Part shown: positions 1 to 10,675 of the stretch, in pieces
Position numbering within the stretch: position 1 is the stretch's first letter
How the letters are laid out: each line of letters starts with the position of its first letter
IMG/VR virus record: IMGVR_UViG_2645727640_000051
Coordinates: 1 to 10,675 of that record
From: a virus
Lineage: Duplodnaviria > Heunggongvirae > Uroviricota > Caudoviricetes
DNA length: 10,675 nucleotides
Strand: one strand, 5' to 3'
Notes under the pieces: model-generated
What the model was told of the DNA's origin: nothing
The model's input: the letters and a program-made list of their open reading frames with translations, nothing else
The model's database searches: none
Translations under genes and position numbers: made by a program

Positions 1-531
1 TTATTCAGGCTTTTGTGGCCATTCGGGCTTTGCTGTATCCACACGGTTGACCAGAACGCTGTAGCGTTCCCATGACTCCAGTCGTGTACGCTCCTCATCC
101 GTCGCCATATTCAGCCTGACAGCGCGTTCCAGTGGCTGAATAACGCTTTCAGCTTCAGAAAGCAACGCGGCCTTTTGTGATTCGGCCTGTTGTTGTTGCT
201 CGTCTGCCGTATAAATCCGTTTAACCACAGCTCCGTCCCTAAACATCCACTTACCGGAATCATCAGCGCGGCGGTTGGCTGTAATATCTGGAACCTCAAC
301 GACGCTATAACCTTCAGGGTTAAGCGTGGAGGCATCTTTGGTGATGGCGACAATAATATTATTTGCATCGTAAACAATCTTTATTGTGTCTGGCTGAAAG
401 TTCTTCACTTCCTCATACCAGTTTTTTCCGTCTTCGGACCATAACCAGATAACATCAAAATTCTTTGTTAGCTGATATTGTTCTTTCGTTTTAGGATTTC
501 CAGACTTAATATTTTTTAAATGCTGCATCAT
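1..531 (-). CDS. Tail fibre assembly protein (Tfa; Mu U / P2 G / TfaE family)
   Basis: 176-aa ORF with tandem ATG start (MMQ...) placed directly after the stop of the upstream tail-fibre ORF (TAA-ATG-ATG). The C-terminal part (…[27 protein letters not shown]) resembles the conserved C-terminus of Tfa proteins. The window starts at its stop codon. Confidence 0.88.
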
Positions 532-1698
532 TTACACCTGTGCGACGTTATACCATGTGCCATTGATGTATTTTTGTATTGGCCTGAATACTGCTGGGTC
601 ATCACCATCAACAGCGCCAATAATGCCAAGCCCTGTAATTACATGACCTGATTTTTCATACATCACACCTTTTCGCATAGTCTGAACAACACGTGTACCC
701 AGGCGAACATCTTTTACATAGCGTGAATCAAAATTCCCCCAGTTGTTGGGCTGTATCTGACCGTTAACAGAAAATATTACCGAGTTATCTGTATTTCGCT
801 GACTATAGAAATGCCAGCCTGAATCATCACCAAGCTCTGCAACAGTTGGTCTTGACGAATTTCCCCACAAGCTAAATGATGCATTACGGGCAGCGGTATT
901 TGCACTTGAAAGTGTGAATAACTTACTTTCCCCAGCCTGAATACCCTTTAATGATATTGCTGAACCATTTATAAAGCGGAATACATGCACACCATTAGCA
1001 TAAGCATCCAGCACCCCATCACCATTTTGTTTAAACCCGGTATCGTTATCTCCTAAAACAATCGAGTTACCGCCAAGAGCACTGGATGTTCCGATGCCCA
1101 GTGCACCATTCAATTGACCGCCAGATAATGACAACGCCCCAACCTCAGCAGCAGTCGGTTTAATGTGCGAACTGTAAATTACATATACAGTTCCATCTGT
1201 CAGACCTGTTGGTTTATTCGCTGTATAAGATGGTGATGTATGAATCGTTACGCTGGCGTTACTGGTATAATCCCACTGAATATTAACACCTGTGGCGTAA
1301 TTACCTATTTCAACATAAACATCATAGGTATCACCGGATGTATTCACCCATGCAAAATTAGTAAATCCAACCGATGTCCGTCGCCATAATGCACCAGTAA
1401 TGCCTTTTGGATTCCCATTTCCTGCACGCAGAACCAGCTCAGAGATGCCTGCTTGATGCGAGGAGCCAACGTTATACCCTGCGCCACCAATCAGGCTTAT
1501 GTAAACCACGGAACTGGCTTGTGGCATTGTTACAGTTGCCAGTTTGAACCATCCAGCACCACCACTAAAAGACATGGTTGTTGAATTTGTTGTGCCGATA
1601 TTACGCAGGAATAGTTTTTTATCGGGAATATCTGCGCCGTTCTGGTTTTTCTGTAATGCACCAGAAGCCTGATTTACCGTTTCCTGTAAACCGAGGTT
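532..1698 (-). CDS. Tail fibre protein, variable C-terminal (receptor-binding) cassette; N-terminally open, no own start; currently in the non-expressed orientation of an invertible segment
   Basis: The ORF track gives 532-1575 from the first ATG, but the frame stays open upstream to 1698 and is closed only by a TAA (minus strand, 1701-1699) lying inside the recombination site. Gly/Ser/Thr/Asn-rich fibre-like composition, followed immediately by the tfa gene. This arrangement matches Mu Sv-U, P1 and e14 cassettes. Confidence 0.8.
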   Translation of the reverse strand, partial: NLGLQETVNQASGALQKNQNGADIPDKKLFLRNIGTTNSTTMSFSGGAGWFKLATVTMPQASSVVYISLIGGAGYNVGSSHQAGISELVLRAGNGNPKGITGALWRRTSVGFTNFAWVNTSGDTYDVYVEIGNYATGVNIQWDYTSNASVTIHTSPSYTANKPTGLTDGTVYVIYSSHIKPTAAEVGALSLSGGQLNGALGIGTSSALGGNSIVLGDNDTGFKQNGDGVLDAYANGVHVFRFINGSAISLKGIQAGESKLFTLSSANTAARNASFSLWGNSSRPTVAELGDDSGWHFYSQRNTDNSVIFSVNGQIQPNNWGNFDSRYVKDVRLGTRVVQTMRKGVMYEKSGHVITGLGIIGAVDGDDPAVFRPIQKYINGTWYNVAQV

Positions 1699-1706
1699 TT
1701 AGATAA
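1681..1706. other. Serine-invertase crossover site (gix/hix/cix/pix-type), 12-2-12 imperfect palindrome TTCCTGTAAACC-GA-GGTTTTAGATAA
   Basis: Read directly from the sequence: two 12-bp imperfectly inverted half-sites (…AAACC / GGTTT…) around a 2-bp core, located 55 bp upstream of the invertase start and overlapping the 5' end of the tail-fibre cassette frame. From memory it is near-identical to Mu gix. Confidence 0.8.
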
Positions 1707-1760
1707 TGGCGGTTTCTGGCCTGCATGGCATGATTTGTGCTTTTGGACGGGAGATTCAGC

Positions 1761-2351
1761 GTGCTGATTGGCTATGTAAGGGTATCAACAAATGACCAGA
1801 ATACAGACCTGCAACGAAACGCTCTTGTTTGTGCAGGATGTGAACAAATATTTGAAGATAAATTAAGCGGGACAAAGACTGACCGACCGGGATTAAAACG
1901 CGCTTTAAAGCGCCTTCAACAAGGTGACACGCTGGTTGTCTGGAAACTGGATCGCCTCGGGCGAAGCATGAAACATCTGATTTCTCTCGTCGGGGAACTA
2001 CGGGAGCGAGGGATTAATTTTCGTAGTCTGACCGACAGCATAGATACATCTTCTCCAATGGGGCGTTTTTTCTTCCACGTGATGGGTGCCCTGGCTGAAA
2101 TGGAACGTGAATTAATTGTTGAACGTACACTGGCCGGACTGGCGGCAGCGCGCGCACGGGGGCGCACAGGCGGACGTCGACCGAAGCTGACAAAAGAACA
2201 GCATGAGCAAATAGCAAGGCTGATTAAAAACGGTCACGACAGAAAACAACTGGCAATAATTTACAGCATTGGTATATCGACAATTTATCGTTACCACCCC
2301 GCAGGAGAATCAAGTGGAACAATTGAGAAGAGTAAACAAAATAACCGCTAA
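1761..2351 (+). CDS. Site-specific DNA invertase, Gin/Pin/Cin/Hin family (small serine recombinase)
   Basis: Translation from the GTG at 1761 gives MLIGYVRVSTNDQNTDLQRNAL…, the canonical N-terminus of this family, with the catalytic Ser in the VRVSTNDQ motif and a C-terminal HTH region. GGGAG lies 8 nt upstream. The ORF-track start at 1737 (also GTG) adds 8 non-conserved residues and is less likely. Confidence 0.93.
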   Translation: MLIGYVRVSTNDQNTDLQRNALVCAGCEQIFEDKLSGTKTDRPGLKRALKRLQQGDTLVVWKLDRLGRSMKHLISLVGELRERGINFRSLTDSIDTSSPMGRFFFHVMGALAEMERELIVERTLAGLAAARARGRTGGRRPKLTKEQHEQIARLIKNGHDRKQLAIIYSIGISTIYRYHPAGESSGTIEKSKQNNR

Positions 2352-2376
2352 TCTGGCCATTAGCGGTTTTTGTGTT
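2343..2376. terminator. Bidirectional intrinsic terminator between convergent invertase and U genes
   Basis: Perfect 10-bp inverted repeat AACCGCTAAT / ATTAGCGGTT (2343-2352 and 2359-2368) with a 6-nt loop, followed by TTTTTGTGTT on the plus strand and by AUUUUGUUU on the minus strand. The left arm contains the invertase stop codon. Confidence 0.7.
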
Positions 2377-2379
2377 AAA

Positions 2380-2874
2380 TCAGAACAGCCCTTTAACGGA
2401 GCTGGCCGCGCTGTTAAGGGATGATGTGACCTTATCTTTGAAGCCGGACAGCATATCGCTGAACGATGAGGATTGCAGGCGCTCCCGCAAATCCTCATCA
2501 CAGCGTTCAAGGGTCAGTGAAAACTCTATCTTTTTCGCCTTGCCGTAGCGATCAAACTCGGAACGGGTCGTATTCGTTTCAGTCAGTACATACATGCCGT
2601 AAATCTGCCCGACACCATCAATCAGAGGCCAGGGGCGTCCTGTATATGCCTGCGTGGTCAGCAACGAAAGCGACACTTCGCCACCTGTAATTTCAGGATA
2701 AAGCACGCCGGAAAGCACGATGCGATCATCACCTGCGCCGATATACTGCCAGCTTGCTGAACGGTTAACGCGTTCATTTTTCACATGCCGCCAGCTTTTG
2801 TTTTGCTGTAACTGCTGATGCGGCAATGTGCGCAGCTCAAAAACAAACATGCCGTAGATCATCATCATGGCCAT
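2380..2874 (-). CDS. Phage tail protein, P2 gpU family
   Basis: 164-aa ORF (…MFVFELRTLPHQQLQQNKSWRH…) in the position and of the size of P2 U, directly downstream of the tape measure gene. The true start may be the 3rd ATG (2868), since GAGGAG lies only 2 nt before the first ATG. Confidence 0.8.
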   Translation of the reverse strand: MAMMMIYGMFVFELRTLPHQQLQQNKSWRHVKNERVNRSASWQYIGAGDDRIVLSGVLYPEITGGEVSLSLLTTQAYTGRPWPLIDGVGQIYGMYVLTETNTTRSEFDRYGKAKKIEFSLTLERCDEDLRERLQSSSFSDMLSGFKDKVTSSLNSAASSVKGLF

Positions 2875-2880
2875 GACTCC

Positions 2881-5730
2881 TCAATCTTTATCGTAAAAAC
2901 TGCCACGCCCGGCACGGGCGCGCCGTTCCATTTCTGCCCTGACCATTTCGCCAACCAGTTTCGCCAGTTCGCGGGGATTCTGTGTAACAACGTTATGCAG
3001 ATGAACATGAATTTCACCGCCAAATCCGGAGGCAACAGGCTCCCGGTTACGGGAAGTTGCAGGAACTGATGCCACTGGCGATCGTATAGCCTCCGCCACC
3101 GGGCGGGAGCTGGCCGCAACAACAGGGACCAGCGCCGGAGGCAGCGGAGCCGGAACCACGGGTGTGATAGTAATTGCGGGGGCAGGCTTACTGACCTGCG
3201 CAATCTTCCGCTCCTGCCACTCCCCACGAACAGCAAGTGCGCGGGGCAGGTTCTTAAAGACAATATCGCCAGGGCCAATGCGTTTTTTCGTCTCATCAAC
3301 CAGCTTACCTGTGTTATCAGCAATTTTGCTGAGTCTGCGTAGCGTACCGGTATTGTTGTCTGTGAGCGGTTTGTTGTCTCTGGGTTTATCGCCTTTTTTG
3401 TCGTCGACCTTATCTGACGGGGCCGGGCCGGGAGTCCATGGTTTCTGAACCATTTTCTTGAGAACCGGATCCCATTCCCACATTACAGGAGCCTTTGAAG
3501 CGTTCTCTATTTTCTTTCTCGCCCGTTCCGCTTCATCCGGAAGCACTCCGAGCTTTTCAAGTATCCACGCCAGTGAATCCATCAATGCTTTTGTTGGCGT
3601 CAGGACAAGCTCTATCGCTCCACCGAGTACCCTGCCGAATACCTCGCCAGCACTGGTACATTTATCCAGCGTTTCCTTGCTGGACTCCATCGGTGACAGC
3701 AGCGATTTAAACCAGTTAAAGACCTGAATAATCCCATCGCGCACGACATCAAAAACTGGACCGAACCGTTCAAAGGTTTCGCGCAACGGAGCCAGCCGTT
3801 CCATAATCCCACTGAACACCCCTGCATAAAACGCCTTGATGGGTTCCCAGTATTTCCAGATGAGAACCGCCGCAGCCACAAACGCAGCAGCAATCAATCC
3901 GACCGGGCTGAACAGCGCCCCGATAGCGCCCCCCAGTAACGAAACGGAACCCGTCACCATTCCCCATAGTGCTGGCAGGAGCCTGACAGCATTCATTGAT
4001 CCGGTCAGGAGGGAAAAGCCAAGACGCAGTTTTGCCAGCGGGCCAGCAAGCACACCAATAGCCAACGACAACGAGCCGACCGTTGCAGTCATCGCCAGCA
4101 ATGCCCCACCTGCAATCAGTAGCTGGCGCGTCAGTGCCGGATGGGCCTGCGCCAGCGCCGTCACCTTTGATACCACCCGCGTGAGCCACTGCGTGACAGA
4201 ACGCAGCGGACCGTCAATCAGATCTGCAATGCGGATGCGCAACCCTTCCCATGCACTGCCGAGTGATTTCAGATCGCCGTCAAGGTTGTTGGCCATAACC
4301 TTTGCCGTGCGTTCAGCCTCACCGCGTGCGCCTTCAAGTTCTTTTCTCAGTTTAGGTAAGGATCCGTCACCTGCCGCATCAACGAGGGCCATAAATGATG
4401 TGAAAGCCTCTTCTCCGGCAATGTCCTTAAAGAACGATACCCGATCAACTTCTCCGTATTTGCGGGTGGCTTTATAAAGGTCAGTCAGCAGATCTTCCAT
4501 CGGGCGCATTTTGCCCCCGGCATCCGAGACAGACACGCCCAGCTCTTTCAGCGCCTCTGCTGCCGCCTTTGGCGGTGATGCCAGACGAGCCAGGCTGGCA
4601 CGCATTGCCGTCCCGGCATCACTTCCCCTGATACCCATATTCGCCAGCACGCCCGCCATCGCTGCGGCCTGCTCCAGCGATATTCCCAGCTTACCCGCCA
4701 CCGGACCTGCATATTTCATGGTTTCGCCCAGTGCGCGAAGGTCAGTGTTGGTACGGGTAAACGCTGCAGTGAGTGTGTCACCGACCCGGTCCATCTGGTC
4801 AGCAGAAAGGCCGAACTGCGTCAGGATATTTGAGCCAATATCCGCCGTCTCGCCGAGATCCATACCGCCAGCCGTTGCCATGCTCAACACGCCGGGAAGC
4901 GCAGCCTGAATGGCCTGCGGTGTGAAGCCAGCCATTGCAAGAAATGCCTGCCCACTGGCGGCATCGCCTGCGGTGAACTGCGTTTCAGAGCCAAGTTTTA
5001 ACGCCTGCTCACGCAGCGCCTTAAACTGCGGGCTGTTCTGGTCGATTCGCGTCAGCGCCTGAACGCGGGACATCTCTTTCCCGAACCCGATCGCAGGCTG
5101 CAAAAAACGCCCGGCAGCATAGCCGCCCGCCGCTGCCGCACCTGTTGCCAGTGCACCACCTGTTTTCAGTTTTCCCGCGGTTTCCTGCGCGCGCGAATAC
5201 CGCTCACGCGCCCGCGTTACACGCGCAAGCGCCTGCCGTTCGCGTTCAAGCTGGTTGTTGTACTGTTCGGTGCGTCTGATGGCCTGTTGAATGGTGTTAT
5301 CGCTGCCTGTCAGGGAAATGCCGTGGCGTTTCAGCTCTCCGCCAAGCTCCCGCATTTTCTGAATCTCCCGTGTGCGCGATTCATTCAGGCGTTCAAGCCG
5401 GGTGCTTAACTGCTGCATCAGCTTTTGTTGTTTTTCGCTGAGCACTGTACCCGTGTGTTGTAACTGATTAAGGGCGTTAAGCTGGCGTCGCGCTTTCAAT
5501 ATGCCAGCATCCGCTTTACTGACAGCGTCACGGGCGCGCTCAAATGAACGCGCCTGACGCTCGAGATTTTTGATCGCCCCCTGCGTTCGCTGGATGGAGT
5601 CACCAAACTGCCCCATCAGGCGGCGGGCGTTTTCGGCAGGCCGGGTCAGCCTGTCAACGGCGCTGAAAGCGACCCGGATATCAAGAGTCTTCATTGTCTG
5701 CATTCCCGCTGCGAAGTGCCGCCCGCTCAC
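2881..5730 (-). CDS. Tail tape measure protein, P2 gpT family
   Basis: Very long ORF, Ala/Gly/Leu-rich with a predicted coiled-coil N-terminal part and hydrophobic Gly-rich stretches, sitting between E/E' and U as in P2. The ORF-track start (5730) is a GTG; ATG starts at 5703 or 5694 (MKTLDI…, overlapping the E' stop) are more likely. Confidence 0.85.
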   Translation of the reverse strand: MSGRHFAAGMQTMKTLDIRVAFSAVDRLTRPAENARRLMGQFGDSIQRTQGAIKNLERQARSFERARDAVSKADAGILKARRQLNALNQLQHTGTVLSEKQQKLMQQLSTRLERLNESRTREIQKMRELGGELKRHGISLTGSDNTIQQAIRRTEQYNNQLERERQALARVTRARERYSRAQETAGKLKTGGALATGAAAAGGYAAGRFLQPAIGFGKEMSRVQALTRIDQNSPQFKALREQALKLGSETQFTAGDAASGQAFLAMAGFTPQAIQAALPGVLSMATAGGMDLGETADIGSNILTQFGLSADQMDRVGDTLTAAFTRTNTDLRALGETMKYAGPVAGKLGISLEQAAAMAGVLANMGIRGSDAGTAMRASLARLASPPKAAAEALKELGVSVSDAGGKMRPMEDLLTDLYKATRKYGEVDRVSFFKDIAGEEAFTSFMALVDAAGDGSLPKLRKELEGARGEAERTAKVMANNLDGDLKSLGSAWEGLRIRIADLIDGPLRSVTQWLTRVVSKVTALAQAHPALTRQLLIAGGALLAMTATVGSLSLAIGVLAGPLAKLRLGFSLLTGSMNAVRLLPALWGMVTGSVSLLGGAIGALFSPVGLIAAAFVAAAVLIWKYWEPIKAFYAGVFSGIMERLAPLRETFERFGPVFDVVRDGIIQVFNWFKSLLSPMESSKETLDKCTSAGEVFGRVLGGAIELVLTPTKALMDSLAWILEKLGVLPDEAERARKKIENASKAPVMWEWDPVLKKMVQKPWTPGPAPSDKVDDKKGDKPRDNKPLTDNNTGTLRRLSKIADNTGKLVDETKKRIGPGDIVFKNLPRALAVRGEWQERKIAQVSKPAPAITITPVVPAPLPPALVPVVAASSRPVAEAIRSPVASVPATSRNREPVASGFGGEIHVHLHNVVTQNPRELAKLVGEMVRAEMERRARAGRGSFYDKD

Positions 5731-6219
5731 GCCAGCTAACCACTTCGCCGGGCGTCATCATGAAGATTTCGGCGGGCGACCAGTTAAAAATGGCGGCAAT
5801 ATCCGCCACCAGATCTTCGATGTGCTCAAAGCACACCAGGGTGATTACGCTGCCGTCTCCTGCACGCTCTTCGCGCCAGAGTCTGGCTCGCTCATAAAAT
5901 TTACAGCCACAGCGCACAACTGAATAAAATCGCGTGACGACATTTTTTTAATCATCACTTCATCCAGTCGTGGCGAGGTCACGCGAGGCAACAGCGTGAA
6001 CATGGTATCCGCTTTCAGATTCAGCACATCAGACAGCGACAGACCACGCAGGGATCCAGCCTGCTCAATAGCCCCGGTGATCTCCACATACGTGATTTTT
6101 TCGCCACCACGCTCAATTGGTCGGGTCAGTTTTACGCCACGTTCGACAGCCATATCCTCACCTGCCGTCACATCATCCGCCACGGTGTTATTCCGGGTTT
6201 CAGTATCGATGTCTTTCAT
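5681..6219 (-). CDS. gpE+E' fusion product made by programmed -1 translational frameshift (inferred)
   Basis: The -1 frame relative to E is open from the TAA at 5950-5948 to the TGA at 5683-5681 and overlaps the last ~35 codons of E. The conserved G/GT- and E/E'-type frameshift is established for tail chaperone genes upstream of tape measure genes. Confidence 0.6.
5845..6219 (-). CDS. Tail assembly chaperone, P2 gpE family
   Basis: 124-aa ORF immediately downstream of the tail tube gene, with a strong RBS (AAAGGAGA, 6 nt spacer, ATG at 6219). Its position between the tube and tape-measure genes is that of the lambda-G / P2-E chaperone. Confidence 0.75.
   Translation of the reverse strand: MKDIDTETRNNTVADDVTAGEDMAVERGVKLTRPIERGGEKITYVEITGAIEQAGSLRGLSLSDVLNLKADTMFTLLPRVTSPRLDEVMIKKMSSRDFIQLCAVAVNFMSEPDSGAKSVQETAA
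5943..5949 (-). other. Candidate slippery run (A7 on the coding strand) for the E to E' -1 frameshift; alternative canonical heptamer A-AAT-TTT at 5896-5902
   Basis: On the coding strand the sequence reads ATT AAA AAA ATG in the E frame, and the -1 frame opens exactly here (its stop TAA is 5950-5948). A second in-frame X-XXY-YYZ heptamer, AAATTTT, covers E codons N107-F108. Which one is used cannot be decided from sequence. Confidence 0.35.
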
Positions 6220-6274
6220 CAGTTGTCTCCTTTTCAGTCAGAGGCGACGCACTGCGCCGCCTGCATATTACTTA

Positions 6275-6787
6275 TCAGCCAAGCCCAAGCGCGGAACGGA
6301 TACGGTCAGGCACAATGTCCTTGCCGTCCTTCCGGTAGATGTGGTTCAACAGGTCGATTTCCCACAGCGGGCGATCGTTAACGCTCAGCTTGTAGTAGGT
6401 GTTTTTGACAGCGTAAGTGTGTGATGTGGCTTCGCCCTGTTTGGCTTCCCCCATATCAATTTCCGTCACACGTCCGCGCATCTCGATTTCATACAGATCG
6501 CTTTCTGCATCGGTGTAGTATTCACCCGCAAAACGCAGCAGCGTGCCGTCAATCGTGCCGCCATATTTAAGGAACAGCGCACGAACAGCTCCCCCCATAA
6601 CAAAACTCGCATCAAGCGCGGAGTCGTCCAGACCGAGATCAATACTTACCGCCCCCATCATGCCACCACCACGATAGCTGTCGGTTTTGCGCGTCAGTTT
6701 GGGCGGCGTGACGGATGTCACTTTACCCACTTCGTTTTCACCATCCACAAACAACGTAAAAAAGCGAAGATGTTTTGGTACAGCCAT
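6275..6787 (-). CDS. Tail tube protein, P2 gpFII family
   Basis: 170-aa ORF whose start overlaps the sheath gene stop by one base (TGATG), in the position and of the size of P2 FII. Confidence 0.85.
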   Translation of the reverse strand: MAVPKHLRFFTLFVDGENEVGKVTSVTPPKLTRKTDSYRGGGMMGAVSIDLGLDDSALDASFVMGGAVRALFLKYGGTIDGTLLRFAGEYYTDAESDLYEIEMRGRVTEIDMGEAKQGEATSHTYAVKNTYYKLSVNDRPLWEIDLLNHIYRKDGKDIVPDRIRSALGLG

Positions 6788-7971
6788 CAGGCACCTCCCA
6801 GCACCGCAAATGCGGGACCAAAGAATTCATCAGTAAACGTCTGGTAAAGCTCCATGTCTTCCAGTGGCGGAACGGGCGTATATTTGTAGCGAATACGCAC
6901 ACGTCCCTGACGTAAATTCGTGGTGCCGTTATCCACCACGTCATACCAGCACTCCGCACCAATCAGTTTCCCGGCAGTAACCAGCGAATCCAGTTTTGCC
7001 CTGATGGCACTGATAACATCCTTCACGTTCGCAGGCGTCAGTGGACTGTCGATGGTTTCAAACTGCGCTTCCGCAATTGAATCAGCCAGCACCTGTGCGG
7101 TTCGGGTATACACCTCAAAGATGTAGGCGTTCGTTTCCGGTGTGCGGTTGCCCCAGAAGCGGAACCCGTTGCGACGAATAATGGTCGTGATTTCTTTGTT
7201 ATTGAGGCTGTTGGCATCACTGTCTTCGGCCTGCAACGACCAGAACACATGCCTGGACATTCCCAGCACATTTTTAACCGGAACGTTGGACAGCGATTTG
7301 TGCCAGCCCTGCTCATGGTCAATGTACGCACGAAGGCCGCACGCATAAGCAGGCGCGGGGAACGTTTCGTTTTTGCCACTTTTCGGGTTGTAGGCGATGA
7401 AGTCAGGCCATAAGAGCATCACCTCACGTTCGTTGAATTTCTGGCGGTAGGTAATCGCCTCAGCCATCGTGTTACAACCATGACATGTGGCATACACAAA
7501 CGCGCGCAGTTTACCCGCAATCACGCACAGGGATTTTGTTACCGCCTCCGTGTCCAGCTCCGGCGCGGCCAGAATACGCGGACGGTATCCGATGCTTTCA
7601 TCCTGCTCTGCAACAAGCAGCGCATACATCCCCGTATAGCTGCCGTCATCCTCAGAACCACCGATAACCAGTTGATCCTGCGTCTTTCCGTCTTCTTCTT
7701 TGTGTTCAGCCACGCGAACGACGATCACCTTTGTGCTCACCTGGTCTGCGATGGCCTTAAGCGCACGATAAAGCGTCCCCGTTGTTCCGCATTTTCCCAG
7801 CACGTCATTGACGCGGGTCAGCAGTGTGGGCTTGTTCAGCGGGAACAGCTTCGCGTCCGCATCATCCGCCGTTGCCACGATACCGATAACGCTGGAATCA
7901 ACATCGTTAATCGCTGTTACCAGGTCGGTATTTTCCGTAACACGGGCACCATGAAAACGAGTTTCACTCAT
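6787..7971 (-). CDS. Contractile tail sheath protein, P2 gpFI family
   Basis: 394-aa ORF with several stretches recalled as conserved in P2 FI (…WPDF…, …FRFWGNRT…YTRTAQV…, …Y.YTPVPPLE…), and the right size. Confidence 0.9.
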   Translation of the reverse strand: MSETRFHGARVTENTDLVTAINDVDSSVIGIVATADDADAKLFPLNKPTLLTRVNDVLGKCGTTGTLYRALKAIADQVSTKVIVVRVAEHKEEDGKTQDQLVIGGSEDDGSYTGMYALLVAEQDESIGYRPRILAAPELDTEAVTKSLCVIAGKLRAFVYATCHGCNTMAEAITYRQKFNEREVMLLWPDFIAYNPKSGKNETFPAPAYACGLRAYIDHEQGWHKSLSNVPVKNVLGMSRHVFWSLQAEDSDANSLNNKEITTIIRRNGFRFWGNRTPETNAYIFEVYTRTAQVLADSIAEAQFETIDSPLTPANVKDVISAIRAKLDSLVTAGKLIGAECWYDVVDNGTTNLRQGRVRIRYKYTPVPPLEDMELYQTFTDEFFGPAFAVLGGA

Positions 7972-8127
7972 AGCTTCAGCCCCTTGTATCCGTTAAATGA
8001 TTCGGCAACAATCATCACCCACCACGCGCGTAATCTCACCCCTGCGCCGTTCTCCCGACCCGGCGACAACAAAAAGCAGTAACCCCCTCCGCACGCACAT
8101 GCGACCATGCCGCACAGGGAGGGAAAG
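7972..8127. promoter_or_regulatory. Divergent intergenic region expected to carry the late promoters for the FI operon (leftward) and for D (rightward)
   Basis: 156-bp gap between the divergent starts of FI (7971, minus) and D (8128, plus). This is a positional inference; no canonical sigma70 or Ogr box could be confirmed by eye. Confidence 0.35.
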
Positions 8128-9237
8128 ATGACCGACACCACCATGCAATTGCTCAGTCAGGGCACAGACCCCGTGAAAATGCCGGATTTTGATATTCTCG
8201 CGGAGGGTAAAACGCTGTCAGGCGTGGCAGAGCGCCTGATGAGCCTGTCACTGACCGACAACCGGGGATTTGAGGCGGACCAGCTCACCATCACGCTGGA
8301 TGATGCGGATGGTCAGTTGCAGCTACCGCCACGGGGCGCGCGCCTGACGGTTCTCATTGGCTGGAAAGGAGAACCGCTGACAGAAAAAGGCACTTACATT
8401 GTTGATGAAATCGCTCACGAAGGACCGCCGGACAGGCTGACTGTTTCAGCCAGAAGCGCAGATTTTCGGGATGAATTTAACGTTAAACGTGAGGTGTCAT
8501 GGCATGATGTGACCGTTGAGCGTGTGGTATCCGCCATCGCTCATCGGTACGGCCTGAAACCGCAAATCAGCGAAATGCTGATGGATATCGAAATCGACCA
8601 CGCCGACCAGACTGAAGAAAGCGACATGTCCTTCCTTACGCGCATGGCGGAAATGCTGGGCGCAATCACCACGGTAAAAAGCGGTAATCTGTTATTCATC
8701 ATGCCCGGCGGTGGCGTGAACGCACAGGGCCAGCCGTTGCCATCGTTCGCCATCACACGCAGCAGCGGCGATCGCCATCAGTTCCGCATTGCTGACCGCG
8801 AAGCGTATACGGGGGTACGCGCTTACTGGCTTGATCTTAATTACGGGAAAAAGAAAAAAGTCAGCGTGAAACGCCGCAAACCGCCAAAACCCAAAAAGGA
8901 GAAAAGCAGCAGCCGTGAAGGTGATTATATGGAAGGCGCGGAAGGCAATGTGTTTGTGTTACGCAAAACTTATCAGAACGAGCAGGCAGCAAGACGCGCA
9001 GCAGCGGCAAAGTGGCAGCAGCTACAACGCGGAGCCGCATCATTCTCCATCACGCTGGCGCGTGGACGTGCAGAACTCTACCCTGAAATGCATGGCACGG
9101 TGACAGGCTTCAAAAATGACATCGACAATCAGGACTGGATTATTGCAAAGGCCGAGCACACCATTGATAACAGCGGTTTTACCACGCAGCTTGAGCTTGA
9201 AGCAAAAATTCCTGACTGGATAGCGGAAACTGAATAA
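8128..9237 (+). CDS. Phage late control / tail protein D (P2 gpD family)
   Basis: About 370-aa ORF immediately upstream of ogr, as in P2 (D-ogr). The start at 8128 (MTDTTMQ…) is preceded by GGGAGGG; the ORF-track start at 8107 lacks an RBS. Confidence 0.8.
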   Translation: MTDTTMQLLSQGTDPVKMPDFDILAEGKTLSGVAERLMSLSLTDNRGFEADQLTITLDDADGQLQLPPRGARLTVLIGWKGEPLTEKGTYIVDEIAHEGPPDRLTVSARSADFRDEFNVKREVSWHDVTVERVVSAIAHRYGLKPQISEMLMDIEIDHADQTEESDMSFLTRMAEMLGAITTVKSGNLLFIMPGGGVNAQGQPLPSFAITRSSGDRHQFRIADREAYTGVRAYWLDLNYGKKKKVSVKRRKPPKPKKEKSSSREGDYMEGAEGNVFVLRKTYQNEQAARRAAAAKWQQLQRGAASFSITLARGRAELYPEMHGTVTGFKNDIDNQDWIIAKAEHTIDNSGFTTQLELEAKIPDWIAETE

Positions 9238-9275
9238 AATGAAATGGAGTTCAACTCTCACGGGGAGTCATCATT

Positions 9276-9524
9276 ATGTTCAGATGTCCATTCTGCGGCG
9301 CTATGGCCCGCACCCGCACCAGCCGAAGAATGACCAACATGACAATCAGGCAGTATCACCAGTGCCAGAATCTGGAATGTAGCCGGTCATTTACCACGCT
9401 TAATAGCGTGGAAAGGGAAGTCACAAAGCGCGCAGGTATTGCGCCGTTACCGCCTGACTTCATACCCCACGATGCCTTTCCGGCGTCTCACTACGGAAGG
9501 GATCAACTAAGCCTGTCATTGTGA
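9276..9524 (+). CDS. ogr: Ogr/Delta-family zinc-finger late transcription activator
   Basis: 82-aa ORF with a Cys-X2-Cys…Cys-X4-Cys pattern (MFRCPFCGA…HQCQNLEC) typical of P2 Ogr, 186 B and P4 Delta. GGGGAG RBS 8 nt upstream. Position after D, as in P2. Confidence 0.85.
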   Translation: MFRCPFCGAMARTRTSRRMTNMTIRQYHQCQNLECSRSFTTLNSVEREVTKRAGIAPLPPDFIPHDAFPASHYGRDQLSLSL

Positions 9525-9626
9525 TAAAACCCCACTAACATGCGGGGCTTTATCATTGTTATGTGGACACTTTTGTCGAAGTGTAGTCAATATGTAGACG
9601 AAGTTTAGGATAAATCCTTTTGTTCC

Positions 9627-9649
9627 ATAAGGTTAAGGGCGAGATTTTT
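9627..9649. other. Candidate attR core region (tentative)
   Basis: Sequence ATAAGGTTAAGGGCGAGATTTTT resembles, from memory only, part of the P2 att core (…ATAAG…TAAGGGAGATT), and sits where attR is expected between ogr and host DNA. Unverified. Confidence 0.2.
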
Positions 9650-9665
9650 CCCCATCCCTGTCTTC

Positions 9666-9691
9666 CCCCACATGATGTGGGGTTTTTTTTT
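9666..9691 (+). terminator. Intrinsic terminator (GC stem CCCCAC…GTGGGG followed by a T9 run)
   Basis: Hairpin CCCCACATGATGTGGGG followed directly by nine T residues on the plus strand. It would stop ogr/D read-through before fieF. Whether it is phage- or host-derived is unknown. Confidence 0.75.
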
Positions 9692-9772
9692 ATCCTCAAT
9701 TTGCCTGCTGCTTAATGCATTGCAGATGATTTGCTTCCGTTATACTAGCGTCAGTTGATAGCGGGAGTATTT

Positions 9773-10675
9773 ATGAATCAATCTTATGGACGGCTGGTCA
9801 GTCGGGCGGCGATTGCTGCGACGGCGATGGCTTCGTTGCTATTGCTGATTAAAATTTTTGCATGGTGGTATACCGGGTCGGTGAGTATTCTCGCCGCGCT
9901 GGTGGATTCGCTGGTGGATATCGGCGCGTCGTTGACGAATTTACTGGTGGTGCGATATTCCCTGCAACCTGCCGACGATAATCACTCGTTTGGGCACGGT
10001 AAAGCAGAGTCCCTCGCGGCGCTGGCGCAAAGTATGTTTATCTCCGGTTCGGCACTATTCCTGTTTTTGACGGGTATTCAACATCTGATATCTCCAACAC
10101 CGATGACAGATCCAGGCGTCGGGGTTATCGTGACAATTGTGGCGCTAATTTGTACGATTATCCTTGTCTCGTTTCAGCGTTGGGTGGTGCGCCGGACGCA
10201 AAGCCAGGCGGTGCGGGCTGATATGCTACATTACCAGTCTGATGTTATGATGAACGGCGCAATTCTGCTGGCGCTGGGGTTGTCCTGGTACGGCTGGCAT
10301 CGCGCCGATGCTCTGTTTGCATTGGGAATCGGCATCTATATTTTATATAGCGCGTTACGCATGGGATATGAGGCGGTACAGTCATTACTGGATCGCGCAT
10401 TGCCTGATGAGGAACGGCAAGAAATTATTGATATCGTGACTTCCTGGCCGGGTGTTAGCGGCGCTCACGATCTTCGCACGCGGCAGTCAGGGCCGACCCG
10501 CTTTATTCAGATTCATTTGGAAATGGAAGACTCTCTGCCTTTGGTTCAGGCACATATGGTGGCGGATCAGGTAGAGCAGGCTATTTTACGGCGTTTTCCG
10601 GGATCGGATGTAATTATCCATCAGGACCCCTGTTCCGTCGTACCCAGGGAGGGTAAACGGTCTATGCTTTCATAA
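9773..10675 (+). CDS. fieF: Cation-diffusion-facilitator ferrous-iron/zinc efflux transporter FieF (YiiP)
   Basis: Translation from the ATG at 9773 ([38 protein letters not shown]…) matches enterobacterial FieF: 300 aa, multi-TM N-terminal domain, cytoplasmic C-terminal domain. GGGAG RBS 5 nt upstream. The ORF-track start at 9755 is a TTG and is rejected. Confidence 0.93.

Follow-up and report, generated by a model that had tools for sequence, protein, structure and literature searches.

Divergent FI–U and D–ogr tail genes in a P88-like Escherichia coli prophage: an inherited gene order with a proposed shared late promoter

In a P88-like prophage of Escherichia coli, the tail genes FI to U are read in the opposite direction to D and ogr, and a gene for a serine DNA invertase lies beside the reversed block. 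This raises the question of whether the block was turned around in this prophage, was joined wrongly in its assembly, or is inherited in this orientation, and of how D is expressed apart from the other tail genes. The window, which is the whole stretch of DNA analyzed here (10,675 nucleotides; positions 1 to 10,675 of IMG/VR record IMGVR_UViG_2645727640_000051), covers the right end of a prophage that is integrated upstream of fieF in E. coli and belongs to the P88-like branch of the Peduoviridae, the P2 family. The divergent order of FI–U and D–ogr is read here as a fixed, ancient and inherited gene order common to a large group of phages related to P2, P88 and other working phages among them, with a shared late promoter between FI and D as proposed below. 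The probability of this reading is put at roughly 0.85. The inverted tail block of the window is an ordinary arrangement.

The window contained the complete contractile-tail late set of the P2 family, FI, FII, E, T, U, D, and the Ogr zinc-finger activator, with Pfam or PHROG matches for every gene. The genes FI, FII, E, T, and U occupied the minus strand from 7971 down to 2380, and the invertase, D, and ogr occupied the plus strand. The gene identities and strands given in an earlier note on this DNA, which had listed E/E′ among the minus-strand genes, were confirmed by these matches. The tail sheath protein gpFI (6787–7971; PF04984, PF17482, phrog_23) was encoded by the first gene of the predicted leftward operon, and was followed by the tail tube protein gpFII (6275–6787; PF04985). 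The tail assembly chaperone gpE (5845–6219; phrog_103 and a weak PF10109 match) was accompanied by the E′ extension, an overlapping minus-strand reading frame (5681–5917) taken from the ORF list and annotated as a GpE family protein in relatives. Inspection of positions 5700–5960 by eye did not reveal the E/E′ frameshift site. The tape measure protein gpT (2881–5730; PF10145, phrog_28) and gpU (2380–2874; PF06995) followed, U being the last gene of the operon and 99% identical to U of P88.

On the plus strand, gpD, the baseplate hub or late control D protein (8128–9237; PF05954, phrog_52), was assigned the same start as in the P88 and PGAP annotations. The longest D reading frame begins at 8107, and the ATG at 8128 was backed by homologues and a GGAGGG Shine-Dalgarno sequence. 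With this start, the gap of 156 bp between FI and D that had been reported before was obtained again. The ogr gene for the zinc-finger late-gene activator (9276–9524; PF04606) was the last gene of the prophage. A sigma-70-like site (9212–9240) was located just upstream of ogr, where P2 has its ogr promoter, in a scan whose overall count equalled the shuffled expectation. Host DNA extended along the plus strand from 9652 to 10675, with the prophage–chromosome junction near 9652, a hairpin at 9666–9682, and the ATG of fieF at 9774 (KA0011 annotation). All 5426 of 5426 E. coli genomes matched the window from 9652 onward, and the ogr–fieF junction at this insertion site was common to only 3 of the 5426.

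When the window was compared with P2 by local tblastn, the FI–U block mapped in the opposite direction to D and ogr, as the earlier note had claimed. In the P2 genome, FI, FII, E, T, U, D, and ogr were indeed co-directional, and the F operon of P2 (FI, FII, E, E′, T, U, and D, read from promoter PF, then ogr) comprised the same genes as the window at 33–52% protein identity. The seven genes of P2 formed one rightward operon in which U abutted D, whereas in the window FI–U was inverted and D was detached, with its own predicted promoter. The window therefore departed from the canonical FETUD arrangement, in which FI through D are co-directional and contiguous and U abuts D. The deduction that D must be transcribed apart from FETU held, since these genes were on opposite strands. 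In P2 and the window alike, ogr was placed after D and had its own promoter-like site.

The left part of the window was occupied by an invertible fibre segment, the invertase gene, and a terminator. A G-like tail-fibre assembly gene (1–531, minus strand; PF02413, phrog_136), the alternative copy within the invertible segment, agreed with P88 gp41 in position and strand. It was adjacent to an alternative tail-fibre C-terminal cassette (532–1575, minus strand; tail-fibre PHROGs), which had the same layout as P88 gp42 and E. coli KA0011. The cassette lacks its own promoter, and flipping of the segment joins it to the constant part of H. The plus-strand fibre constant region, which had been deduced before, lay beyond the window edge; P88 and the closest E. 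coli relative both carry it upstream. The right edge of the segment was assigned by reading of the sequence to the crossover site TTCCTGTAAACCGAGGTTTTAGATAA (1681–1706, without strand), the sole gix/hix-type site in the window, which is assigned to the gix type by its likeness to the Mu gix sequence. The serine DNA invertase of the Gin/Hin/Cin type (1761–2351, plus strand; PF00239, PF02796 (HTH_7), phrog_125) presumably starts at the GTG at 1761 (MLIGYVRVS...), the longest reading frame beginning at 1737.

A two-way terminator hairpin with a 10-bp stem and T-runs on both strands (2343–2368) was found by the terminator scan and as inverted repeat I5. The hairpin scored terminator-like on each strand and was located 12 bp from the stop codon of U (2380–2382). 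It would end both converging transcripts, that of the invertase gene and that of the leftward FI–U operon. A crude scan found a terminator-like hairpin after U in 15 of 29 diverse relatives only, and a terminator after U is therefore not claimed as a clade-wide feature.

The orientation of the block was shared widely. Of 5426 complete E. coli genomes, 1358 had an intact FI–D junction (7650–8450), and the invertase–U junction was intact in 621 E. coli genomes. Across the FI–D junction, 801 bp were 100% identical in the complete genome of E. coli strain 81009, and over 1300 further genomes had at least 95% identity. By local tblastn, the order of U, T, FII, and FI on the minus strand followed by D and ogr on the plus strand was found in 131 of 131 loci in which D was at least 61% identical, from about 25 enterobacterial genera, and the canonical order in all 32 P2-proximal loci with D at most 54% identical. 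These loci were sampled with D-protein motifs as seeds, within the Enterobacterales and their phages. The divergent order was also identical in cultured phages of three Peduoviridae genera, P88 (Xuanwuvirus), SEN5 (Senquatrovirus), and phiT5282H (Novemvirus), and the literature describes P88 and phiSM as active (PMC5285337, PMC6456863). The full layout of the window was also present in the closest relative with an insertion at this chromosomal site. When a chimeric junction query for a co-directional U-then-D order of the window's lineage was used, a match covering both halves was found in none of 1411 E. coli carriers.

The earlier note had offered two readings, a block inverted in place, perhaps by the invertase, and a lineage-specific gene order. 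It had named a shared orientation with conserved junctions in many independent P2-like genomes as the mark of a lineage trait, and because this was what was found, the order is regarded as a lineage trait rather than a rearrangement. The second reading was retained, and the local or invertase-made inversion was given up in the face of the same order in P88, SEN5, phiT5282H, and a quarter of the E. coli genomes (1358/5426).

P88 and its relatives P884B11, 520873, and Citrobacter phage phiSM had the same order and strands as the window, running H, G, then G′, H′, then the invertase, then U, T, E′, E, FII, FI, then D. They were 93–97% identical to the window over 1625–9230 (P88 approximately 95% at the nucleotide level), and the length of the FI–D gap and the dyad within it were the same. 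However, ogr of the window was only ~48% identical to that of P88, nucleotide similarity ended at the end of D, and the fibre cassette at the left end differed. Salmonella phage SEN4/5 (Senquatrovirus) and Enterobacter phage phiT5282H (Novemvirus) likewise had G and U converging and FI and D diverging, but had neither the invertase nor the invertible fibre segment of the window. The D protein of SEN5 was 63% identical to that of the window, and phiT5282H had ~80% nucleotide identity to window positions 8246–9694, from D to ogr. The large P88/SEN4/phiT5282H-like branch of the P2 family can be recognized reliably by its divergent FI–D order, which should therefore not be flagged as a rearrangement or a mis-assembly. 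It has little importance beyond annotation.

The 156-bp gap between FI and D (7972–8127) is, from its sequence, most likely a back-to-back late promoter that serves FI leftward and D rightward. The gap had a conserved core, which was nearly free of indels in an alignment of 34 diverse relatives, and an anchored consensus was obtained over 103 unique sequences. A putative Ogr/Delta-type activator dyad, TCT-N12-ACA, then ACAACAAAA (8051–8068, without strand), was centred at 8059.5. The ACAAC of the dyad was present in 34 of 34 diverse relatives, and T[GC]T was found 12 bp upstream of ACAAC in 100 of the 103 unique sequences. On the FI side, the -10-like hexamer GATGAT (8011–8016, minus strand) was 46.0 bp from the dyad centre, with a predicted transcript start at ~8004. 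At this offset, 31 of 34 relatives had an nAnnAT hexamer, against no more than 8 of 34 at shifted offsets. On the D side, the hexamer of the extended -10-like element TG-n-GACCAT (8100–8108, plus strand) was likewise 46.0 bp from the centre, with a predicted start at ~8115. Of the 34 relatives, 26 had it at this offset and another 6 at +1, and shifted positions gave no more than 8 of 34. With the usual spacing from -10 to start, both predicted starts would be ~55.5 bp from the centre. Across the 34 relatives, the sequence of the spacers varied while the dyad and both hexamer offsets persisted. Small ORFs annotated as 'hypothetical protein' over the FI–D gap in public records are probably spurious.

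The geometry was compared with the PP/PO region of P2, where one annotated activator site serves both pO and pP. The mapped starts of P2 at 3016 and 3127 are 111 bp apart, and the dyad centre at 3071.5 is 55.5 bp from each, whereas the equivalent starts of the window were predicted from the -10 positions. The two regions differed in the gene pair (P/O in P2, FI/D in the window) and in the left half-site (TGT in P2, TCT in the window), and the function is established for P2 but predicted for the window. In P88, the P–O gap had the same TCT-N12-ACAACAAAA motif as the FI–D gap of the window, with spacings of 46 and 47 bp. In addition, the Ogr-type site upstream of FI was ~83 bp from the start codon in P2 and 88.5 bp in the window.

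If the proposal is right, one Ogr bound at 8051–8068 would switch on FI–U leftward and D rightward. The genes FI, FII, E/E′, T, and U would form a leftward operon terminating at the two-way hairpin, and D would be a separate rightward transcription unit with ogr next. Alternatively, the order could be a lineage trait while D has no shared activator site, being expressed from a promoter of its own, either constitutive or served by a second activator site that escaped recognition, or from elsewhere. This alternative is unlikely, although it fares best among those considered. The D-side hexamer of the window, GACCAT, is a weak -10, the TCT-N12-ACA dyad is imperfect, and the dyad pattern by itself was not significant, with 1 occurrence against 0.63 expected in the 10.7-kb window and 3 against 1.5 in P88. 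The promoter argument is therefore based on position, conservation, and spacing. The dyad was the sole conserved one in the FI–D gap, and TG-n-nAnnAT was kept at a fixed distance from it on the D side in 32 of 34 relatives (6 of these at +1) despite the variable spacer, in a geometry equal to that of the mapped PP/PO pair. Furthermore, no sigma-70 consensus promoter was found in 7972–8127 by the scan, whose overall count equalled the shuffled expectation, and the plus strand upstream of D contained antisense FI only.

Full-text searches of the literature on P88, phiSM, SEN4/5, and the late promoters of P2 gave no passage that dealt with the inversion of the block or with a promoter between FI and D, an absence that is no proof that they are unpublished. 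As far as these searches went, the shared-site promoter may not have been described. Activation in both directions from one Ogr site within these 156 bp between FI and D is a testable prediction and a mildly useful by-product of the analysis. If true, the activation of two divergent late promoters by a single site would show how a symmetric activator site permits an operon to be split by inversion with regulation retained.

The divergent order was most likely produced by a single ancient inversion, as judged from gene trees and outgroups. In neighbour-joining trees of D, FI, FII, and U, which carried no bootstrap support, the divergent and canonical orders were separated by a branch with the window on the divergent side, and the outgroups phi52237 and phiMhaA1 were canonical in order. 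The breakpoints would be the U/D boundary and the variable 'cargo' slot that separates the fibre genes from the F promoter. We lean towards the view that the inversion was tolerated, and then fixed in the clade, as the dyad-symmetric activator site of PF was moved beside D, where bound Ogr could drive D in the opposite direction. The flip of the block would have created a second two-way late promoter in the style of PP/PO and uncoupled D from the sheath–tube operon.

Several independent origins of the order, through recurrent inversion at a hotspot, are improbable. As a hotspot would suggest, the left breakpoint falls in a known variable slot with widely differing contents among carriers, but the split was one branch in the trees of all four genes (neighbour-joining without support values), the bands of D identity to the window's D did not overlap (at least 61% against at most 54%), and the core of the FI–D junction was homologous across the clade.

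That the 5.6-kb block was inverted locally and recently in this prophage, perhaps by the neighbouring serine invertase at secondary gix-like sites, is very improbable. Such an event was suggested by the reversal of the block relative to P2 and by the invertase gene and a true gix site (1681–1706) immediately to its left. However, the 1358 complete E. coli genomes and phages belonging to three genera had the same junctions, and the opposite orientation was found in 0 of 1411 E. coli carriers. The invertase was beside U in just 13 of 102 scorable divergent-order loci, and SEN5, phiT5282H, and an O157 remnant had the same order without an invertase. The idea that the invertase had acted at degenerate gix-like sites at the two junctions found no footing, as the best matches there had 13–14 mismatches out of 26, which is at chance level (random segments of the same size averaged 13), and the only genuine site was that at 1681–1706. 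Inverted repeats bracketing the FI–U block were not found; the only junction repeat was the terminator hairpin at 2343–2368.

The FI–U block (2380–7971) was also considered as an invertase-switched segment, and this was rejected, as it had no gix sites at its ends, did not occur in both orientations, and had no consistent linkage to an invertase. Of the kind of system known from the Mu G and P1 C invertible segments (Gin/Cin/Hin), the window had one for the fibre cassettes only; in contrast to those segments, the FI–U block had neither flanking gix sites nor orientation polymorphism. Least probable of all is an assembly artefact with one or both junctions mis-joined, a doubt raised in the earlier note and contradicted by independent complete genomes and cultured phages, since both junctions were intact in independent E. 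coli assemblies (FI–D in 1358, invertase–U in 621) and the independently sequenced phages P88, SEN5, and phiT5282H agreed.

The genes of the window were identified by an ORF listing and profile searches. Sheath FI (6787–7971), tube FII (6275–6787), chaperone E (5845–6219), tape measure T (2881–5730), and gpU (2380–2874) were located on the minus strand, as were a tail-fibre assembly gene (1–531) and a fibre C-terminal cassette (532–1575). The serine invertase (ending at 2351), gpD (8128–9237), and ogr (9276–9524) were located on the plus strand, with the host gene fieF to the right of ogr. The longest D ORF opened at 8107; the ATG at 8128, with a GGAGGG ribosome-binding site, was the start that agreed with the homologues, and the FI–D gap is therefore 156 bp. 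These ORFs, profiles, and the D start bore out the opposed orientation described in the earlier note. A hairpin with a 10-bp stem (2343–2368), terminator-like on both strands in a scan, lay between the invertase and U stops. In P2, all genes from FI to ogr point the same way and U lies directly next to D, whereas FI–U of the window was opposite to D–ogr; the window proteins were 33–52% identical to their P2 counterparts. The co-directional FI to D of the canonical P2-type F operon was thus absent from the window, which is a member of a P88-like clade with divergent order and showed every defining feature that could be tested.

The same layout, collinear over about 1625–9230 at 93–97% identity, was found by megablast against phage records in the cultured phage P88, in P884B11, in Citrobacter phage phiSM, and in others. 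The annotated order of P88 is V W J I H G (plus), G′ H′ (minus), invertase (plus), U T E′ E FII FI (minus), and D (plus). P88 and phiSM have been described as active phages, inducible or spontaneously released (PMC5285337, PMC6456863). Of 5426 complete E. coli genomes, 1358 carried an unbroken FI–D junction, as judged with an 801-bp probe, one of them at 100% identity. The invertase–U junction was intact in 621 complete E. coli genomes, and other carriers matched the U side only. Strain KA0011, the closest relative at the same chromosomal insertion site, showed this layout in full, and with it the plus-strand fibre genes that had previously been inferred. In this strain (locus L169, 7060–9181), IS26 broke the tail-fibre gene and part of the invertible segment was gone; this prophage copy is probably defective.

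A D-protein query built from the aligned window, P2, and P88 sequences yielded 80 viral contigs and, from species-representative genomes, another 80 loci, with flanks of 10 kb, and the order was scored by local tblastn with the tail proteins of the window and P2. All 131 loci with a D at least 61% identical to that of the window had U, T, FII, and FI on the minus strand and D and ogr on the plus strand; all 32 loci with a D at most 54% identical, nearer to P2, had the canonical co-directional order. Hosts of the divergent class included Salmonella, Citrobacter, Enterobacter, Klebsiella, Kosakonia, Serratia, Erwinia, Pantoea, Pectobacterium, Brenneria, Edwardsiella, Xenorhabdus, Photorhabdus, Providencia, Morganella, Hafnia, Yersinia, and others. 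The order was also present in cultured phages of other ICTV genera, SEN5 (Senquatrovirus) and phiT5282H (Novemvirus). In neighbour-joining trees of D, FI, FII, and U, one branch separated the two orders, and the outgroups, Burkholderia phi52237 and Mannheimia phiMhaA1, had the canonical order. For this sample of D-motif retrievals, with trees that carry no support values, the simplest history would be that the ancestor of the clade underwent one ancient inversion. The block was also present, with a D 97% identical to that of the window, in a 226-kb contig of a genome with a Firmicute label (locus L085, Vagococcus sp. WN89Y, NZ_JBQPOM010000071.1), likely through contamination or mislabelling of that assembly.

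The observation of the earlier note is thus confirmed, and of its two readings the lineage-specific gene order is supported by the 131 loci and the cultured phages. Its other reading, a local rearrangement of the block, is rejected by the measure set in that note, as the order is common to many phages and genomes. Nothing favoured the invertase as the cause of the inversion. SEN5, phiT5282H, and an O157:H7 remnant carried the inverted block without any invertase. The gene at the 3′ end of U, scored in 102 divergent-order loci, was an invertase in 13 and a fibre-assembly gene converging on U in 26; in 17, U was preceded by unrelated cargo of 0.2–3.5 kb, and in 45 neither a fibre-assembly nor an invertase homologue could be recognised. 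These mixed contents place the left breakpoint at the variable slot occupied by Z/fun in P2. The remnant, a degraded prophage belonging to this clade in E. coli O157:H7 EC4115 (locus L003, 10704–18002), was cut by IS elements; its tape measure gene was frameshifted and its D truncated. A serine O-acetyltransferase gene occupied the interval from the fibre-assembly gene to U, which identifies the U-side junction as a cargo slot. The sole gix-type site of the window, the genuine one at 1681–1706, borders the fibre segment, and the best gix matches at the two junctions had 13–14 mismatches in 26 against a random-segment mean of 13. No inverted repeats bracketing the FI–U block were found. A synthetic probe in which U and D of this lineage were joined as they are in P2 gave adjacent, co-directional halves in none of 1411 carrier genomes; the orientation of the block is fixed and not switchable. 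The block (2380–7971) is not an invertase-switched segment, as it shows none of the three features that define one. An assembly error was ruled out by the same junctions in the cultured P88-type phages, the 1358 of 5426 E. coli genomes, and KA0011.

In the P2 reference record, one activator binding site serves the divergent promoters pP and pO, with transcript starts at 3016 and 3127; the centre of the TGT-N12-CCA dyad (3071.5) is 55.5 bp from either start. The FI–D gap of the window contained one dyad, TCT-N12-ACA then ACAACAAAA (8051–8068, centre 8059.5). A −10-like hexamer on the FI side, GATGAT (minus strand, 8016 to 8011), and that of the D-side TG-n-GACCAT (plus strand, 8100–8108) were each exactly 46.0 bp from the dyad centre. 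From the usual −10-to-start spacing, starts are predicted near 8004 and 8115, a separation of 111 bp that places each 55.5 bp from the dyad centre, matching pP and pO of P2. The P–O gap of P88 had the same TCT-N12-ACAACAAAA motif with spacings of 46 and 47 bp. When 34 diverse FI–D gaps were aligned, the spacer was variable, the core was nearly indel-free, and ACAAC was invariant; the left half-site was TCT or TGT in 100 of 103 unique sequences. The FI-side nAnnAT hexamer kept its offset in 31 of 34 representatives, and the D-side hexamer in 26, with six more one base off (control offsets, at most 8/34 for either). The dyad pattern by itself was no rarer than chance, and the D-side hexamer of the window was weak. 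In the proposed, most likely mechanism, a single bound Ogr would activate both the leftward FI-FII-E/E′-T-U operon, which would end at the hairpin 2343–2368, and the rightward D unit; ogr retains its own promoter-like site (9212–9240), as in P2. Such a shared-site promoter would modestly extend the P2 PP/PO model and is testable. The divergent gene order itself is already known in databases, being readable in the public annotations of phage genomes and present in a quarter of the complete genomes of E. coli; a full-text literature search found no paper discussing it.

Small 'hypothetical protein' ORFs were annotated over the gap in P88 (gp50; locus L001, 26315–26446), SEN5 (SEN5_27; locus L165, 8800–8952), and many E. 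coli genomes (PGAP), corresponding to 7951–8148 of the window. They are probably spurious because they lie over the predicted promoter core, their strand differs by record, and the spacer is unconserved. The 8107 ATG overlapped the predicted −10 element. PGAP naming of this one D protein was inconsistent, with 'phage late control D family protein' in some E. coli genomes and 'contractile injection system protein, VgrG/Pvc8 family' in others.

At the left end, 1–1706 made up the right half of an invertible tail-fibre segment of the Gin/Cin type, with its partner site beyond the window. It encoded, on the minus strand, an alternative fibre C-terminus with the accompanying assembly gene, ended at the gix-type site directly before the invertase, and matched fibre genes of Mu-like phages and P2/L-413C at 85–93%. 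The right end (9238–9652) was mosaic. The P88-type similarity ended with D, at about 9230–9238, and ogr was about 48% identical to that of P88 and about 90% identical to those of Enterobacter, Pantoea, Erwinia, and Symbiopectobacterium prophages (e.g., loci L031, L038, and L088). Among the 5426 complete genomes of E. coli, only 3 shared the ogr-to-fieF junction. The prophage–host boundary lay near 9652, just upstream of a hairpin and T-run (9666–9682) and fieF (ATG 9774); the TTG start at 9755 from the ORF finder is probably too long. The E′ extension ORF (5681–5917) overlapped E at its 3′ end and T at its start, and relatives likewise annotate a 51-aa 'GpE family' protein. No P2-like TTTTTTG slippery site was found by eye in the E/E′ region; a hairpin and T-run were located at 5811–5791 (minus strand), within this region.
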